Assembly: GCA_015059875.1 (NCBI GenBank)
Contig: SUZQ01000004.1
Span: forward strand, 13-64,012
Direction: 5' to 3'
DNA: 64,000 nucleotides
Source of the DNA: Rikenellaceae bacterium
GTDB taxonomy: Bacteria > Bacteroidota > Bacteroidia > Bacteroidales > Rikenellaceae
The notes under the pieces are model-generated. The model made no database searches. It worked only from the letters and a program-made list of their open reading frames with translations, and had not been told where the DNA came from. The stretch's first letter is position 1; each line of letters opens with the position of its first letter. Of the stretch, positions 2,695-37,736 are shown one piece after another. The translations under genes were made by a program, and so were the position numbers.

Positions 2695-4476
2695 ATGAAT
2701 ATCGAACAACACATTACAAGCGTGGTAAAGGCGGTCGTGGAGGCTCTCTATGGCGAGGTTGCCGACTCGCAGATACAGATTCAAAAGACTCGCAAGGAGT
2801 TCGAGGGCGACTATACTCTCGTAGTGTTTCCACTCGTCAAGATGGCTCGCAAAGCACCTGAAGCAGTGGCTACCGAGATTGGCGAGAAGGTTGTTGCTTC
2901 GGCTGCCGAGTTCAACGCGTTCAATGTTATCAAAGGTTTCCTTAACCTCTCGCTCGACCAGAAGTTCTGGGTAGAGCGTTTCGAGGAGGTTGCAGCCAAC
3001 GAGAACTATGGCGTAGCAGAACCAACGGGTCGTACAATAATGATTGAGTACTCCTCGCCAAACACCAACAAGCCACTCCACCTCGGACATATCCGCAACA
3101 ACCTCTTGGGTTACTCGGTGGCACAGATTTTAGCGGCTAACGGTCACAATGTAATCAAGGCTAACCTTGTGAACGACCGCGGTATTCACATCTGCAAGTC
3201 GATGGTTGCGTGGTTGCGATACGGCAATGGTGCTACACCTGAATCGACCGGCAAGAAGGGCGATCACCTCGTAGGCGACTACTATGTGGAGTTCGACAAG
3301 CACTACAAGGCTGAAATCAAAGAACTCGTTGCAGGCGGAATGAGCGAGGAGGAGGCAAAGAAGCAGGCTCCGATACTCCTCGAAGCGCAGGAGATGTTGC
3401 GCAAGTGGGAGGCAAAAGATGCCGAAGTTCGTGCGCTTTGGGAGAAGATGAACGGCTGGGTATATGATGGTTTCGATGTAACCTACAAGACTCTTGGCGT
3501 TGATTTCGATAAGGTTTACTACGAGTCGCAGACCTATATTCTCGGCAAAGGACTTGTCGAGGAGGGTTTGGCGAAGGGTATCTTCTTCCGCAAGGAGGAT
3601 GGCTCGGTATGGATTGACCTCGAAAGCGATGGACTCGACCAGAAGCTCTTGCTTCGTGGCGATGGCACATCGGTATATATGACGCAGGATCTTGGAACGG
3701 CTTTGCAGCGTTTTGAGCAGAATGCCTTGAACGGCATTATCTATGTTGTAGGTAACGAGCAGAACTACCACTTCCAAGTTCTGAAGTTGATACTCAAGAA
3801 ATTGGGCTACGAGTGGAGCGACGACATTTTCCATCTCTCGTATGGTATGGTGGAGTTACCTGAGGGCAAAATGAAGTCACGCGAGGGAACAGTTGTCGAT
3901 GCTGACGACTTGTGCGAGGCGATGATTTCGACAGCACGCGAGATGTCGCAAGAGTTGGGCAAACTCGATGGATGCAGCGAGGAGGAGGCTGCGGCAATCA
4001 GCTCTATGGTTGGTTTGGGTGCGCTCAAATACTTTATCCTTAAGGTTGATCCGAAAAAGACAATGTTGTTTGATCCTCGTGAGTCAATCGACTTCAACGG
4101 CAACACCGGCCCATTTATCCAATATACTCACGCTCGTATCTGCTCCGTTTTGCGTAAGGCTGCTGAGCAGAATATCTCGTTCGAGGGCGAGAAGATCGCT
4201 TGCGAACTGTTGTCGGAGGAGGTTGAGTTGGTGAAGATGCTATGCGACTACCCTGCTACCGTAGTAGCTGCGGGCGAGGCGTTTGCGCCTTCGATGATTG
4301 CAGCGTACACCTATGAGTTGTGTAAGGCGTTCAACGGTTACTATCACGACCACTCTATCCTTCGCGAGGAGAATGAGGCTGTGAAGACGATGCGCCTTAA
4401 GTTGGCACAGCAGGTAGCACGAGTTATCAATCGCTCGATGCGATTGTTGGGCATCGATGTACCTGAGCGAATGTAA
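2695..4476 (+). CDS. argS: Arginine--tRNA ligase
   Basis: EYSSPNTNKPLHLGH (HIGH-like), KMKSR, FNGNTGPFIQY, C-terminal PERM. Confidence 0.98.
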   Translation: MNIEQHITSVVKAVVEALYGEVADSQIQIQKTRKEFEGDYTLVVFPLVKMARKAPEAVATEIGEKVVASAAEFNAFNVIKGFLNLSLDQKFWVERFEEVAANENYGVAEPTGRTIMIEYSSPNTNKPLHLGHIRNNLLGYSVAQILAANGHNVIKANLVNDRGIHICKSMVAWLRYGNGATPESTGKKGDHLVGDYYVEFDKHYKAEIKELVAGGMSEEEAKKQAPILLEAQEMLRKWEAKDAEVRALWEKMNGWVYDGFDVTYKTLGVDFDKVYYESQTYILGKGLVEEGLAKGIFFRKEDGSVWIDLESDGLDQKLLLRGDGTSVYMTQDLGTALQRFEQNALNGIIYVVGNEQNYHFQVLKLILKKLGYEWSDDIFHLSYGMVELPEGKMKSREGTVVDADDLCEAMISTAREMSQELGKLDGCSEEEAAAISSMVGLGALKYFILKVDPKKTMLFDPRESIDFNGNTGPFIQYTHARICSVLRKAAEQNISFEGEKIACELLSEEVELVKMLCDYPATVVAAGEAFAPSMIAAYTYELCKAFNGYYHDHSILREENEAVKTMRLKLAQQVARVINRSMRLLGIDVPERM

Positions 4477-33688: not shown

Positions 33689-36361
33689 TTAGAAGTTATA
33701 TCCCTGAATCTTATCTGCATAATCTTTCCAGCCTTCGGCAGCCTTATACGCAGGCACTGAGTTAAGAGGAACATAAATGTAGTACTGAACATCCTCCATA
33801 TCATAGAAAATACCATTGCCAGCATCTGGCGGTGTTACCGCTTTGCAATATACACTCTTTAAATTTTTACATGCGTCAACAAATTTTCCTGATATTGTTT
33901 TAAATGTCGAAGGAATTACAATCTCCTCCAAAGTACCGATTCTATTAAAAGGACGATAGGCAGCTTTGGTAACCCCCTCAGGTATTTCATATTTGGTAAC
34001 ACCATAAGCTGCAAAACCATACAATACATTATCTTTTATCAGAGATAGACCATCTTCTGTTGCAAATTTTCCCTTAAATCCTTGAATCATGTTCGGGCCA
34101 GTGATAATACCATCACCGACAAAATCTGTTACACTTTCTGGTATAACAAATACAATAGGATTCTGCGGATAGTTAATACAAAAATACGCCAAACTTGTTA
34201 TACCATCTGGTAGTGCATATTCACCAGCTGGAATATTTTGAGCAACATTTATCAATTTATTGTCAAATATAAAGCAACGATTATCTGAAGACGCATGTTT
34301 TCCGTAAAAATATTCCATGCCCAAACAAGACATAAAAGGTGATAAGCCTACTTCAACCAAGTTGTCTGATAGTGTAACGCTAGTTATCTGTTGGCATGCT
34401 TGAAATGCGTATTTCCCAATTGATTTCAAACTTTGAGGTAAAACTACGCTACCTTTCATTTTTTTACAATTCGAAAACGCTCCTTTACCTATACTTTCTA
34501 TGTTTTTACCAAAATTAACACTTTTTAGTGATGTGCAGCCACCAAATGCATCGTTCCCGATTGTTATCACACTATCAGGAATAGTGATACTGTTCAGCGA
34601 TTCGCAGTATCTAAAACAATCGTTCGGTATTTTTGTGGTTTTCTCAGGGATATTAATCTCTTTTAGCGAACTACACGTCGAGAAACAGTACTCTCCTAAT
34701 GTCTCTACATTTTTTCCAAGTGTTACTCTCTCCAATTTTGCCAAATTGCCAAATGTAGTTCTACCGATTGAGGTTACACTATCAGGAATATCAATTGAGA
34801 TAAGATCATCGCAACAATATGCAAATGCCTGAGATGCGATTGTTGTTACACTGTTTGGAAGAGCAATATATTGGAGGGTATAACCACTTCCTTCGTTTAA
34901 ATCGGCTTTCGAGCCAAACGAGTATTGACCGATAGTTGTAACCTCTCCATCAAACTTGAACACAAAACATCCCTTCTGCCAATCGTAGAGATTTGAAACG
35001 ATATTTGCACCGAAGAGTTCTACATCAGTTTTATTGTTTGCATTTGTTGGAACAAGAGTCTTGCCATCAGTTGAGAGATAGTAAATTTCGTTATTAGCAG
35101 GAACAATCGAAATGCCTTCACTGTACCAACGCTGTGGTACGATAGGGGTATATTCCGATGTACGGTCGTTATTGCCGTCAGAAATCTCCATGCGAAGCGA
35201 TGCTGCCTGCAAGTCTGTATAGAACTCAGCCGACAAATTCTCGCCCGAAACGGCAACGGTTACGATTCCATTCTCTGCATCAGCCTTAAAAGATGTGATA
35301 GGCATATCAACAAACACCAACTCTTCACCTTCGTAGAGTGCCTTAACCTTTACGCACTCTTCCCATTTGATAGACAAACTATTTATTGCGTCTTTAGGTG
35401 CAATCTCATATTTGAGTGTTATAGTTGCCGACTCGGCAGATGTGATGACCTTAACCGCATCGTTACCACTCTCAATAAGCGACACAGACTGAATACGATT
35501 TACAAGGTCGGCTACAGTCTCCTCTAATGCCTCGAGTCGCTTTTCGATATCGTCGAGTCGCGAGTTAATTGTTGCCAATTCGTCATCAATGCGCTGATTT
35601 ACAGCTGCAATCTCCTTGGCAATCTGCTCGTTGATAACACCTGCAAAGTCGTTGATAGCACTCTCGATAGCACTCTTGTACGACTCTTCAACCTCGCTCT
35701 TCAATGTCTCGAGCGATGCCACCAAAGCCTCAATCTCCTTGCGCAAAGACTCGCTCTCCTCGGTCAAAGCAGCCGTCAAAGCGGCAATCTGTGCATCAAC
35801 ATCAGCGATTGTCGCATAGCCAGCCAACTGCTCGTTTACCCACTGCTTCATCGACTCCTCAGAAGCCTCGAGAGCAGCATCAAGAGCCTCAGTCGAAACA
35901 CCGTCAAACTCAGCAAGCATAGCCTTGAGCGTAGCCAACTCAGCGGCAAGAGCGTTGTACTGCTCCATAGTGGCAAAGGTGGCCTCAACCCAATCCTTCA
36001 TCTCGGCGAGGTCACCCTCGGTGTAGCCCTGCAGATTGGCAATCATCTGCTCCAATGCCGCTACGCGCTCTTCAAGAGCAGCAATTACATCCTTAACGCC
36101 GTTGTCGCTACCACGCGTTGCAGACTGCTCACTCGCTTTGAGCGATTCGATTGTCGAGTTCAAAGCTGACTTTACGGTCTCAAGGGTAGCTATAGTTGCG
36201 GTGATATTTGCACCTTGCTCCTCGATTGTGGCAATCTTTGCCGCTTGCTCAGTAGGTGGATTTACTAAATCGTTACCACCATCATTTGCTCCTGCATTGT
36301 CAGTTTGACAACCCATTGCAGTCATTCCAACTGCTGCTAATAATAGAAGAAATTTCTTCAT
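33689..36361 (-). CDS. Surface lipoprotein: long coiled-coil stalk plus BspA-type (LRR_5) repeats
   Basis: Lipobox AMGC; heptad region roughly aa 40-290; IPDSVT.IG..AF..C..L repeats; VYCKAVTPP cap. Confidence 0.85.
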   Translation of the reverse strand: MKKFLLLLAAVGMTAMGCQTDNAGANDGGNDLVNPPTEQAAKIATIEEQGANITATIATLETVKSALNSTIESLKASEQSATRGSDNGVKDVIAALEERVAALEQMIANLQGYTEGDLAEMKDWVEATFATMEQYNALAAELATLKAMLAEFDGVSTEALDAALEASEESMKQWVNEQLAGYATIADVDAQIAALTAALTEESESLRKEIEALVASLETLKSEVEESYKSAIESAINDFAGVINEQIAKEIAAVNQRIDDELATINSRLDDIEKRLEALEETVADLVNRIQSVSLIESGNDAVKVITSAESATITLKYEIAPKDAINSLSIKWEECVKVKALYEGEELVFVDMPITSFKADAENGIVTVAVSGENLSAEFYTDLQAASLRMEISDGNNDRTSEYTPIVPQRWYSEGISIVPANNEIYYLSTDGKTLVPTNANNKTDVELFGANIVSNLYDWQKGCFVFKFDGEVTTIGQYSFGSKADLNEGSGYTLQYIALPNSVTTIASQAFAYCCDDLISIDIPDSVTSIGRTTFGNLAKLERVTLGKNVETLGEYCFSTCSSLKEINIPEKTTKIPNDCFRYCESLNSITIPDSVITIGNDAFGGCTSLKSVNFGKNIESIGKGAFSNCKKMKGSVVLPQSLKSIGKYAFQACQQITSVTLSDNLVEVGLSPFMSCLGMEYFYGKHASSDNRCFIFDNKLINVAQNIPAGEYALPDGITSLAYFCINYPQNPIVFVIPESVTDFVGDGIITGPNMIQGFKGKFATEDGLSLIKDNVLYGFAAYGVTKYEIPEGVTKAAYRPFNRIGTLEEIVIPSTFKTISGKFVDACKNLKSVYCKAVTPPDAGNGIFYDMEDVQYYIYVPLNSVPAYKAAEGWKDYADKIQGYNF

Positions 36362-36416
36362 AGTTGTAATTGTTTTGTTTGCCCACCAACCCCGAATGTG
36401 CGGTTATTATAATAAA

Positions 36417-36619
36417 GAAAGTGTGAGGTTGATTCTCGTTTATCTGACACGAGGCTCTGGAATGCCCTTACAACAAATAAACAATACCCCACACCCGTAT
36501 TCAAGTGTAGGGCAACGAAAGTGCCATAACACCAAATACACGGTGACGAGTGTGTTGCTCTCCTTGTTGTAATGAAATTTTCCAGATTTCGTGTCAAGGA
36601 TAAAAGCTAATACACTTTC
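36417..36619 (-). ncRNA. Candidate structured cis-regulatory leader RNA (long rod hairpin)
   Basis: At least eight nested complementary segment pairs between the promoter and the ATG of the BspA gene. Confidence 0.55.
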
Positions 36620-36652
36620 ATCAAATATGTCTGCAATCCAAGGACTGCGCTA

Positions 36653-36660
36653 CAAATTTA
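36653..36660 (-). promoter_or_regulatory. -7 box (BspA gene 1), implying a ~285-nt leader
   Basis: TAAATTTG on minus strand. Confidence 0.65.
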
Positions 36661-36693
36661 TAAACTTATTTTCGTTTTTTTCATAAATTCCAC

Positions 36694-36748
36694 AAAAAAA
36701 GAGCGAGAAAAATTCTCGCCCTCAATAACTACTCACTACTCTCTACTC
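36694..36748 (-). terminator. fabI terminator preceded by a (GAGTAGW)n heptamer array
   Basis: GAGCGAGAA-AAA-TTCTCGC(C)CTC with A tract; taactactcactactctctactc at 36726-36748. Confidence 0.65.
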
Positions 36749-36749
36749 G

Positions 36750-37577
36750 TTACTCACTGATTTTTCCTTTTCCGTACGCCTCGATTACAGATGGGGAGAT
36801 TGCCATACTCGAGAAGCCACCATCGTGGTAGAGATTCTGCATCGTAACCTTGCGAGTCAAGTCCGAGAAGAGTGTAACTACATAGTCGGCACAATCGTCT
36901 GCCGTGGCGTTGCCAAGTGGCGAAATCTCGTCTGCCATCTCAAACCACTTGCCAAGTCCTGCAATGCCCTGCCCCGCCGTTGTCATTGTCGGCGACTGTG
37001 AAACGGTATTTACGCGCACCTTGCACTTCTTGCCGTAAATCGCTCCGAACGAGCGAGTTATACTCTCCAACAACGCCTTTGCATCAGCCATATCGTTATA
37101 GCCGATAACGGTGCGTTGCGCTGCGATATAGGACAACGACACCACCGAGCCATACTCCGCCATTGCATCTTTCTGATAGAGCGTCCGCAACAGTTTGTGG
37201 AACGACAGAGCCGAAATATCGATTGTCTTTAACATATTTTGGTAGTTGGTATCCTCATAGGGGATATTCTTGCGCACATTTGGCGACATTCCGACAGCGT
37301 GAAGCACGAAGTCAATCTTTCCACCAAAATGCTCCAATGCTGTATCGACCAAGTTTTGTAAATCTTCAACCGAGGTTGCATCGGCAGGAACAACCAATGC
37401 TCCAGTCTGCTCCGCCAACTGATTTATTGTACCCAAACGAATTGATACTGGGGTATTTGTGAGGAGAATCTCTGCGCCCTCCTCCACTGCTCGCTCGGCA
37501 ACTTTCCACGCAATCGATAACTCGTTGAGTGCGCCGAAGATAATACCGCGCTTGCCTTTCAAAAGATTATAAGCCAT
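36750..37577 (-). CDS. fabI: Enoyl-ACP reductase
   Basis: LLKGKRGIIFGA...SIAW, YNDMADAKA, HDGGFS; -7 box at 37603-37610. Confidence 0.95.
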   Translation of the reverse strand: MAYNLLKGKRGIIFGALNELSIAWKVAERAVEEGAEILLTNTPVSIRLGTINQLAEQTGALVVPADATSVEDLQNLVDTALEHFGGKIDFVLHAVGMSPNVRKNIPYEDTNYQNMLKTIDISALSFHKLLRTLYQKDAMAEYGSVVSLSYIAAQRTVIGYNDMADAKALLESITRSFGAIYGKKCKVRVNTVSQSPTMTTAGQGIAGLGKWFEMADEISPLGNATADDCADYVVTLFSDLTRKVTMQNLYHDGGFSSMAISPSVIEAYGKGKISE

Positions 37578-37736
37578 AACCAAAATTTAAGTTATTACGC
37601 GACAAAGATAGAAAAAATTCGTTATTTCAGCCCTTTTTATTACGGTTTTGATGCACAAGCGACAATAATTGTGAAAAATAGATTAACTTTGCGCTCGAAA
37701 GCACGAAATAATAGAAATAAGTATATAATAGCGACT

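Follow-up and report, generated by a model that had tools for sequence, protein, structure and literature searches.

A unit of about 290 nt, in which a promoter is joined to a large RNA fold ending just ahead of a start codon, recurs about 20 times per genome in Alistipes and related Rikenellaceae. We are fairly confident that its copies form a family of transcribed, structured leaders. The starting point was a first-pass annotation of the window, by which we mean the whole 64,000-nt stretch analysed (Rikenellaceae bacterium, assembly GCA_015059875.1, contig SUZQ01000004.1). It had described a hairpin of about 200 nt in the leader of a gene for a leucine-rich repeat (LRR) lipoprotein and had suggested an undescribed structured leader RNA. 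That suggestion is upheld by many homologs, compensatory base changes, an RNA-type strand bias and a lack of matches in Rfam. No Rfam 15 family reached its gathering threshold: for positions 35800-37300, scanned up to E 10, the best score was 19 bits against a gathering value of 80 (E 1.6), and 18 further copies, scanned up to E 1, gave two chance-level matches only (E 0.5-0.58). In the literature we found no published description of the element; the motif lists of PMC8040213, a source covered in part, run to thousands of candidates and could hold a fragment of it.

A hairpin leader and its recurrence

The element lies in the intergenic region 36362-36749, flanked by two minus-strand ORFs at 36750-37583 (277 aa) and 33689-36361 (890 aa). 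The second of these is the downstream gene and encodes a lipoprotein-like protein with a coiled-coil stalk and a BspA-type LRR head (Pfam LRR_5, E 1.6e-57). An intrinsic-terminator-like hairpin of the upstream gene, called by a terminator scan at 36699..36723 (minus strand), marks the 5´ limit of the unit's transcript. The promoter occupies 36653..36690 (minus strand). Its -7 box, TAAATTTG at 36653-36660, and the ATG at 36361-36359 are where the first-pass annotation had placed them; the -33 element is degenerate here, with TTTA for TTTG. The box matches the Bacteroidota -7 consensus TAnnTTTG (PMC7366714, in part).

Every arm pair that had been listed for the hairpin is present in the sequence, and the minimum-energy fold computed for the minus-strand RNA unites all of them in one long nested hairpin. 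An inverted-repeat search returned GAAAGTGT/ACACTTTC (36417-36424/36612-36619) and TGACACGA/TCGTGTCA (36445-36452/36589-36596), both 100% complementary. In the minus-strand fold the pairs are UUUAUC/GAUAAA, UGACACGA/UCGUGUCA, UCUGGAA/UUCCAGA, UUACAACAAG/UUUGUUGUAA, UGUAUUUG/UGAAUACG, GUGU/ACAC and an apical GGCA/UGCC. Folding of both strands favoured the strand of the gene: the 299-nt minus-strand RNA reached -93.6 kcal/mol, compared with -68.3 +/- 4.6 kcal/mol for 200 dinucleotide shuffles (z -5.5, none of the 200 as good), and the plus-strand (antisense) RNA reached -78.5 kcal/mol (z -3.2).

The hairpin as described is thus present in the leader of the LRR gene, but it is not private to that gene and belongs to a repeated element; the conserved unit also exceeds it in extent, beginning at the promoter (about 36690) and ending at 36381. 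In the same genome (2.07 Mb in 85 contigs, 85% complete) nhmmer found 19 matches with E <= 1e-32, five weaker ones on other contigs (E 4e-16 to 1e-4) and some opposite-strand echoes of the palindrome, and blastn with relaxed scoring found 20. Similarity between these copies spans about 330 nt, comprising the promoter, the entire leader and the last bases ahead of the ATG. The homologs anticipated in other genomes exist as well. With one copy as query, BLAST gave matches in 21 of the 24 other genomes searched within the genus; in the family it matched 41 of 151 genomes, which represent 11 of 31 genera, and among genomes from other families of the order 1 of 16. These counts are lower bounds, since few candidates were scored per genome, many genomes are incomplete and the searches used BLAST and nhmmer rather than a covariance model of the whole unit. 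Complete copies occur in two single-contig genomes (3.3 and 3.8 Mb), with two more in the genome of another family. Exact-pattern matches (70 stretches) came from Alistipes sp., Rikenellaceae bacterium and Tidjanibacter metagenome-assembled genomes from animal guts.

Metagenome depth piles up over the element in RNA and DNA runs alike, which marks a repeat and not expression; both RNA runs consist of assembled contigs, which contain 12-13% of the sampled words and yielded no starts, ends or bridging contigs. The skips of 69-138 nt in the run alignments are attributable to other copies, or to other organisms, whose apical parts differ. An invertible promoter of the Bacteroides fin type was considered and rejected: the promoter lies outside GAAAGTGT/ACACTTTC, and the alignments, a weak test on contigs only, contained skips and no strand changes.

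Architecture and covariation

From 5´ to 3´ the unit consists of TTTG-N20-TAnnTTTG, a small hairpin (H0), the single strand AGACAUAU, the strand GAAAGUGU, a rod of about 190 nt, UCAACCUC, ACACUUUC, a U/A-rich linker, GGGGUUGG-UGGGC, an A-rich spacer and the ATG. This order was read from two alignments, A1 with the 18 copies of the own genome and A2 with 96 copies. A2 combines these 18 with 78 of 83 full-length matches (from 91 nhmmer matches in fetched loci), one identical copy and four copies without exact anchor motifs having been dropped. Loci fetched by an exact 3´ motif supplied 70 of the 78 additional copies, and every copy had to contain the two clamp motifs, so the conservation of the basal helix P1 and of the G-rich strand described below is partly by construction.

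The box TAnnTTTG is present in 96/96 copies, again partly by construction of the copy set. An upstream TTTG stands 17-23 nt from it in 53 of the 96, with T, T, T and G each at 81-85% per column. H0 (GCAGUC-CUUG-GAUUGC, 36633..36648, minus strand, as are all features that follow) lies a few nucleotides past the predicted transcript start. It begins 4-5 nt past the end of the -7 box and carries stable tetraloops, or is replaced by a longer hairpin in some copies; its pairs vary in concert (GC:91/GU:4/AU:1, CG:91/UA:3, AU:66/UA:5/UG:5).

P1 clamps the base of the rod through pairing of GAAAGUGU (36612..36619) with ACACUUUC (36417..36424), as found by inverted-repeat search, fold and alignment. 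It is 100% paired in 96/96 copies with six of eight pairs invariant, both motifs having been required for entry into the set. Among the four excluded copies, L035 and L036, of one lineage, combine AAAAGUGU with ACACUUUU, which replaces a G-C pair of P1 by A-U through a double change. The rod itself extends over 36432..36611 with its apical loop around 36511-36525. Its lower part comprises 6+8+7 bp with small internal loops in the fold, including UGACACGA/UCGUGUCA (36589-36596 with 36445-36452, from the minimum-energy fold) and the helix UCUGGAA/UUCCAGA (36580-36586 with 36456-36462, from fold and covariation). The upper part and the apex, the apical third, vary among subfamilies. On the 3´ arm, the conserved block GUGUGGGG (36487..36494) can pair inside the rod or alternatively with CCUCACAC (36421-36428).

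The 3´ domain begins with the C-rich strand UCAACCUC (36425..36432), the 5´ strand of a second helix, P5, which directly abuts the 3´ strand of P1. Its partner is the G-rich strand GGGGUUGG (36386-36393), which together with UGGGC occupies 36381..36393. P1 and P5 cross and may stack end to end as an H-type pseudoknot, since the 16-nt strand UCAACCUCACACUUUC is continuous; this geometry is a suggestion drawn from the pairing. The U/A-rich linker between the helices (UUUAUUAUAAUAACCGCACAUUC, 36394..36416) forms conserved alignment columns and could serve as a weak terminator tail, a protein site or a translation enhancer. In divergent copies, reading by eye shows a small hairpin, P6, with the G-rich strand in its loop and a stem that varies among copies (CUAUC/GAUAG, CAUAU/AUAUG, ACCG/CGGU, CCAUA/UAUGG, CUUG/CAAG, GCAG/CUGC, CCGG/CCGG, GCCG/CGGC). 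P6 was kept out of the counts on the 96-copy alignment, since no single register there suits both the major and the divergent types. The 3´ pseudoknot domain is missing from one copy, L033. An A-rich spacer, about 20 nt long (36362..36380), leads to the start codon. For 68 of the 75 copies in which an ORF was found, the ATG maps to -14..+6 nt relative to a fixed point, which lies 62 nt downstream of the start of CACACUUUC.

The covariation looked for as a sign of RNA structure is found, with 39 of the 62 A2 pairs changed on both sides. For the structure made up of H0, P1, the rod and the P5 pseudoknot, 85.2% of A2 cells are paired, compared with 76.2 +/- 0.3% after shuffling (0/500) and 39-53% with slid partners; the copies are paralogs and kin, and the shuffle statistics therefore overstate. 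The helix UCUGGAA/UUCCAGA is 99.9% paired and all seven of its pairs are compensated (CG:44 GC:36 UA:16; AU:50 CG:35 UA:8 GC:3), and the lower helix beneath it is 88.2% paired with both-side changes in 11 of 14 pairs. An unbiased scan of APC-corrected mutual information placed its six best pairs in these two rod helices. P5 (UCAACCUC/GGGGUUGG, helix 8) is 93.7% paired with both-side changes in four of eight pairs, and was recovered independently by RNAalifold on the own-genome copies of A1.

Two observations favour the RNA level, as judged from the alignments. The sense strand has a lower minimum free energy than the antisense strand in 95/96 copies (mean -91.1 vs -76.5 kcal/mol), and G.U cells outnumber A.C cells by 179:11 in P5 and 81:7 in H0. 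In the lower rod the excess is only 75:44, which leaves room for a DNA palindrome in that part.

Downstream genes and mobility

In the own genome, 8/19 strong copies lie upstream of BspA-type LRR (LRR_5) lipoprotein genes; conversely, of 15 LRR_5 frames eight have the unit and seven, including the second LRR gene of the window, are without a detected copy. Behind the remaining copies lie genes for small lipoproteins, a TM2-like membrane protein, a 361-aa protein and three paralogous 123-aa proteins. A same-strand ORF starts at most 40 nt from the end of the unit in all 18 complete strong copies, in a search of forward ORFs. The tally of downstream genes was extended with Pfam to 74 distinct first ORFs from all genomes and gave LRR_5 14, DUF6567 5, BACON 4, DUF4988 3, zinc ribbons 3 and fimbrillin-like 2; no other single named family occurred in more than nine of the 74, and the tally revealed no shared pathway or transport function. 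Some first ORFs are peptides of about 40 aa followed by large lipoprotein genes. With LRR_5 behind 8 of 19 strong copies at home and 14 of 74 elsewhere, the idea that the element specifically controls adhesin expression finds no support. A lipobox-like start was seen in 35/75 first ORFs and a signal-peptide-like start in 48/75, compared with 36-41% of 1412 long genome ORFs; this enrichment is a hint only, obtained with a crude regular expression on related genes. A retron msr-msd origin was rejected, with no reverse transcriptase family among the 25 most frequent of the 71 families of the 74 first ORFs.

Leaders that are nearly the same often precede genes that are not. Among pairs of leaders at least 85% identical, 59/74 precede first ORFs without similarity beyond the signal peptide. 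In the 63 such pairs whose flanks could be examined, neither flank was similar in 44, the upstream flank only in 10, the downstream flank only in three and both in six. At one junction the identical stretch starts some 28 nt ahead of where the -7 box ends and breaks off directly behind GGTGGGCAA; the unit in this pair is 98.4% identical over 304 nt and the orthologous upstream gene 86%. A second pair has tRNA-Arg(CCG) and the leader in common, with two unrelated lipoprotein genes behind them. The break points of exchange vary; that of one pair follows GGGCAA, that of another lies inside the ORF, about 17 nt from its start. The window's own locus, recognized by the same upstream gene end and terminator, is found in two other genomes, in one with the same leader and a 45-aa ORF behind it, in the other with a different rod subfamily. 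By these comparisons, the unit is evidently propagated or converted independently of both its flanks.

Such behaviour invites comparison with a selfish, non-autonomous MITE-like DNA repeat carrying an outward promoter, in which the rod would be a by-product of the transposition palindrome and any effect on genes incidental. The multiple copies, the sharp borders, the unrelated flanks of most near-identical pairs, the higher identity of the unit than of its neighbouring orthologous gene, the breaking of assemblies at copies, the piling up of metagenome depth and the modest G.U excess of the lower rod would all fit. We nonetheless consider this reading unlikely. In the few junctions viewed, the unit ends, near the -33 region and after GGTGGGCAA, have no terminal inverted repeats, the sole perfect inverted repeat at a fixed position (GAAAGTGT/ACACTTTC, 8 bp) being internal, and the borders of the displayed pairs and groups show no target-site duplication. 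Every complete copy examined faces an ORF at fixed spacing, and covariation with a strong G.U bias is seen in H0 and in the asymmetric 3´ part of the unit (P5, with P6 judged by eye). Nor does carriage on phages or plasmids appear likely: IMG/VR viral contigs had no exact pattern match and plasmids no match to the unit, and the one phage match was partial (109 nt, 74.8%), in an unannotated 8.3-kb record named 'Bacteriophage sp.'. The domesticated MITE proposed in the first-pass annotation therefore fits as regards copy number, borders and flanks, but not as regards the ends and target duplications in the junctions viewed, the constant orientation towards a gene and the possession of a promoter.

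Correia elements of Neisseria and ERIC sequences are dispersed repeats of about 100-300 bp, often located just upstream of genes, that can supply promoters. They are transcribed in mRNA leaders, form long hairpins and are reported RNase III substrates that alter mRNA levels. Correia-type elements are MITEs, with terminal inverted repeats, target duplication and insertion in either orientation. The present unit is likewise dispersed, gene-upstream, promoter-bearing and endowed with a long hairpin. Unlike Correia elements, it is asymmetric (promoter, 5´ hairpin, rod, pseudoknot domain), co-oriented with the gene and fixed in spacing, with neither terminal repeats nor target duplication in the junctions viewed. 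A second parallel is offered by mobile promoters, or promoter reuse, in prokaryotes, where highly similar upstream regions precede unrelated genes within and between genomes (PMC3575422, in part). A near-identical unit before non-homologous genes presents this situation too; mobile promoters, as presented there, are a DNA-level concept, whereas the unit adds about 260 nt of covarying RNA structure downstream of its promoter. Taken together, it acts most like Correia-type co-transcribed repeats and mobile promoters, with a large covarying RNA fold in addition.

An alternative fold

The rod is not the only structure that the leader can adopt in prediction. RNAalifold on 46 copies of the largest subfamily preferred P1 with three hairpins. 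The alternative pairings open to the conserved blocks include, on A2, GUGUGGGG/CCUCACAC, which is 99.1% paired (UA:91 CG:4; GU:43 GC:37 AU:16; GC:59 GU:25 AU:6) with A variants always met by U and a change of U-A to C-G in four copies, as well as CGUUUAU with AUAAACG (96%) and short stems beside each strand of UCUGGAA/UUCCAGA. In the three-hairpin form the strongly covarying 7-mers UCUGGAA and UUCCAGA would, on the model, face each other as kissing loops.

One possibility is that the two folds constitute a switch or attenuator read by a factor in trans (a protein, small RNA or ligand). The rod with its pseudoknot would then alternate with the three hairpins, GUGUGGGG capturing CCUCACAC. The fold adopted would decide whether transcription terminates in the U-rich tract that follows ACACUUUC, or whether the G-rich strand is accessible, and the gene set would thereby be co-regulated. 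Segments with two potential partners are invariant and helices with one partner drift with compensation, as expected of such a device; the near-complete, variant-matched pairing of GUGUGGGG/CCUCACAC, the RNAalifold result in one subfamily, the stability of the 3´ arm by itself (about -26 kcal/mol) and the conserved U-rich tract after P1 point the same way. Against this, the mean energy of the rod is -71 kcal/mol and that of the two arms folded alone -43 kcal/mol, an advantage of about 18-28 kcal/mol in which the lower figure allows an estimated -10 or so for the apex. The best covariation is that of the variable lower helix, a helix found in the rod form only, and the alternative stems hardly vary, a pattern that is compatible with their formation but does not prove it. 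Both folds are available automatically, moreover, because the element resembles two tandem similar hairpins. The A-U-rich base of P1 would make a poor terminator, and downstream genes without a metabolic theme render a metabolite ligand unlikely. For these reasons (lower energy of the rod, near-invariant alternative stems, and two folds that follow from tandem similarity) we treat the rod as established and a conformational switch as possible, and we find it doubtful that switching is what the unit is for. The resemblance to riboswitches and Rfam cis-regulatory leaders extends to the conserved structured 5´ leader, the covariation and the alternative partners; the unit differs in its roughly 20 copies per genome, its want of an Rfam 15 match and its downstream genes, which have no common pathway.

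A bolder version joins this switch to the exchange of genes. The element would be a bistable RNA device with a gene-cassette slot, in which a rod locked by a double pseudoknot alternates with three hairpins held by the UCUGGAA/UUCCAGA kissing loops and a family-specific factor reads the state. About 20 surface cassettes would be co-ordinated or made mutually exclusive, and the same DNA would serve as a homology arm for exchanging cassettes and rod 'addresses' within and between Alistipes genomes. We regard this as a long shot.

Discussion

The reading we prefer, with confidence and doubt about evenly balanced, is that the unit is a portable promoter with a cis-acting structured leader, belonging to the Rikenellaceae (Alistipes) and acting after transcription, on mRNA stability or processing. 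The stability or processing mechanism, taken by itself, is put forward tentatively. Transcription from the TAnnTTTG box would yield an mRNA that starts with the small terminal hairpin H0, and a hairpin at the 5´ end of a transcript is the classic shape of a 5´ stabiliser. Stacking of the clamp GAAAGUGU/ACACUUUC on the helix formed by UCAACCUC and GGGGUUGG would place a pseudoknot just upstream of an unstructured, A-rich landing site for the ribosome. Terminal hairpin and compact fold together would set the life-time of the mRNA in cis, and the lower rod, with about 21 bp, would offer a double-stranded site for processing of the RNase III type; a gene with an RNase III domain is present in the own genome. 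The result would be a common expression behaviour for a changing set of genes, mostly for surface or exported proteins.

Long stabilising leaders with a hairpin at the very 5´ end are known from E. coli ompA and from S-layer genes, where each belongs to a single gene. The unit shares with them the long leader, the predicted 5´-end hairpin and the association with envelope or surface genes; it differs in being a multi-copy, exchangeable family with a rod of about 190 nt and a pseudoknot, and stabilisation is in its case proposed by analogy. The position of the pseudoknot, which ends about 20 nt ahead of the ATG in front of an A-rich initiation region, is in keeping with a report that Bacteroidota mRNAs, which are without a Shine-Dalgarno sequence, need an unstructured A-rich initiation region (PMC7366714, in part). 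A Shine-Dalgarno or anti-Shine-Dalgarno role for the CCUC/CUCC and (A)GGAG loops was rejected, the G-rich strand lying 24-50 nt from the ATG.

It is very improbable that the copies are independent small RNA genes, each a promoter followed by a structured RNA of about 235 nt that ends at the U-rich tract and merely happens to lie upstream of a gene. The unit does have its own promoter and a hairpin base followed by UUUAUUUAU, and multi-copy small RNA families exist in Bacteroides. Conservation, however, does not stop at the U tract but takes in P5 and P6 as well and ends at a set spacing from the ATG, the displayed sequences contain no second promoter motif between unit and ATG, and the terminator scan called no terminator at P1.

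Least probable of all is a DNA-level recombination site, either an attC-like folded site or a homology arm, for swapping the gene cassette behind it: orthologous loci do keep their upstream side and differ in the coding sequence that follows (the tRNA-Arg(CCG) pair), upstream-only similarity exceeds downstream-only similarity (10 pairs vs three) and at the window's locus the two other genomes have another rod and other genes, yet the break points are not fixed, the copies are dispersed and not arrayed, the promoter, H0 and 3´ domain would go unexplained, and ordinary homologous recombination suffices without a special site. Integron attC sites and Vibrio cholerae repeats are arrayed beside an integrase, measure 57-141 bp and normally lack a promoter. 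Both they and the unit are repeated imperfect palindromes with conserved ends, variable structure-preserving middles and exchangeable cassettes adjacent; the unit, in contrast, is dispersed, about 290 nt long, equipped with its own promoter and marked by an RNA-type G.U bias.

Returning to the preferred reading, a portable promoter with a cis-acting leader, its interest lies in the organisms that carry it. Alistipes and its relatives are abundant gut bacteria, and to our knowledge almost nothing is known of their RNA biology. Here, a large structured RNA element stands about 20 times per genome ahead of outward-facing proteins (BspA-type LRR, fimbrillin-like and other lipoproteins). With about 100 natural variants it makes a good test case for the prediction of pseudoknots and alternative folds, and it may provide a ready-made, context-insulated expression cassette for the engineering of Bacteroidota. 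The way in which the module has spread would illustrate how genes that bacteria have recently acquired come under an expression programme already in place. The bistable device, if true, would give gut commensals a surface-variation system of a new type. If the unit sets mRNA life-time or switches genes, it would rank among the main points at which Rikenellaceae control their cell surface.

Distribution and copy number

The repeated unit of promoter and folded 5´ leader is a repeat that fragments assemblies, and its copy numbers are therefore underestimates. Many of the copies in the 2.07-Mb assembly that holds the window are separated from a contig end by no more than about 1.4 kb (contigs C1, C19, C21, C26, C31, C48, C55 and C72), and metagenome contigs likewise end at the element. 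Outside the usual hosts, one exact-pattern match (L067) was found on a contig of about 2 kb binned as 'Eubacteriales bacterium' (JAZSMN010000001.1, 2041 nt). This label is likely the result of mis-binning; alternatively, the match may reflect transfer. Positions 4370-4468 of MT836914.1, an 8.3-kb record from human faeces that is titled 'Bacteriophage sp.' and carries no annotation, match the element's 3´ arm over 109 nt at 74.8%.

Sequence variation of the unit

In many loci, tandem repeats with short units of about 7 nt adjoin the upstream side of the -33 region of the promoter, as in the window (36729-36756) and at L053, L082, L050, L088, L052, L076, L062 and L069. The repeated sequence differs from locus to locus, e.g. 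GGAAAAC, AAGAATT, GAGACGA, GAGAATT, AATGCAG and AGCCATT.

Variation is also seen within the leader. The copy L033 (contig 65 of genome G008) has the promoter, the clamp and the rod and is devoid of the G-rich 3´ pseudoknot domain, in place of which an A/U-rich stretch extends to the ATG. In the divergent copies L111-L114, L022, L037 and L034, the G-rich loop is (A)GGAG and its partner CUCC, located 24-50 nt from the ATG. This pair resembles that of Shine-Dalgarno and anti-Shine-Dalgarno sequences; Shine-Dalgarno pairing is not used for most genes in the host phylum. In the upper rod of the window copy, a terminator scan revealed a hairpin of 13 pairs, CCCUACAC.../...GUGUGGGG, with a U-rich run behind it (36485-36514, minus strand); as a predicted fold, this hairpin may provide one more partner for GUGUGGGG. 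In some of the other subfamilies, not in all, the sequence allows a similar stem.

A further divergent subfamily is marked by a short apex, by GCGUGG with CCACGC, and by a P5 pseudoknot pair of its own, UCAGCACC/GGUGCUGR. It is seen in L099 (4769-5027) and in three own-genome copies on C21, C69 and C26 (L023-L025), the latter ahead of three paralogs encoding a 122-124-aa protein with the N-terminus MF(Y/F)AVYTNG.

Genes behind the leader

At two loci in different genomes, a tRNA-Arg(CCG) gene (L053, 6254-6326; L087, 3847-3919) and the leader are shared, yet the lipoprotein genes behind them are unrelated, the likeness ending about 17 nt inside the ORF. Elsewhere, the leader is directly followed by a small ORF of about 40-46 aa (L051, L103, L109, L049, L101, L081, L088, L064, and C50 and C23 of the own genome), belonging to a family with a common motif like (Y/F)LxPx(I/V)EV...VExGF..S. 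A large lipoprotein gene begins 24-30 nt after this ORF, resulting in a two-gene order of leader, small peptide and big surface protein.
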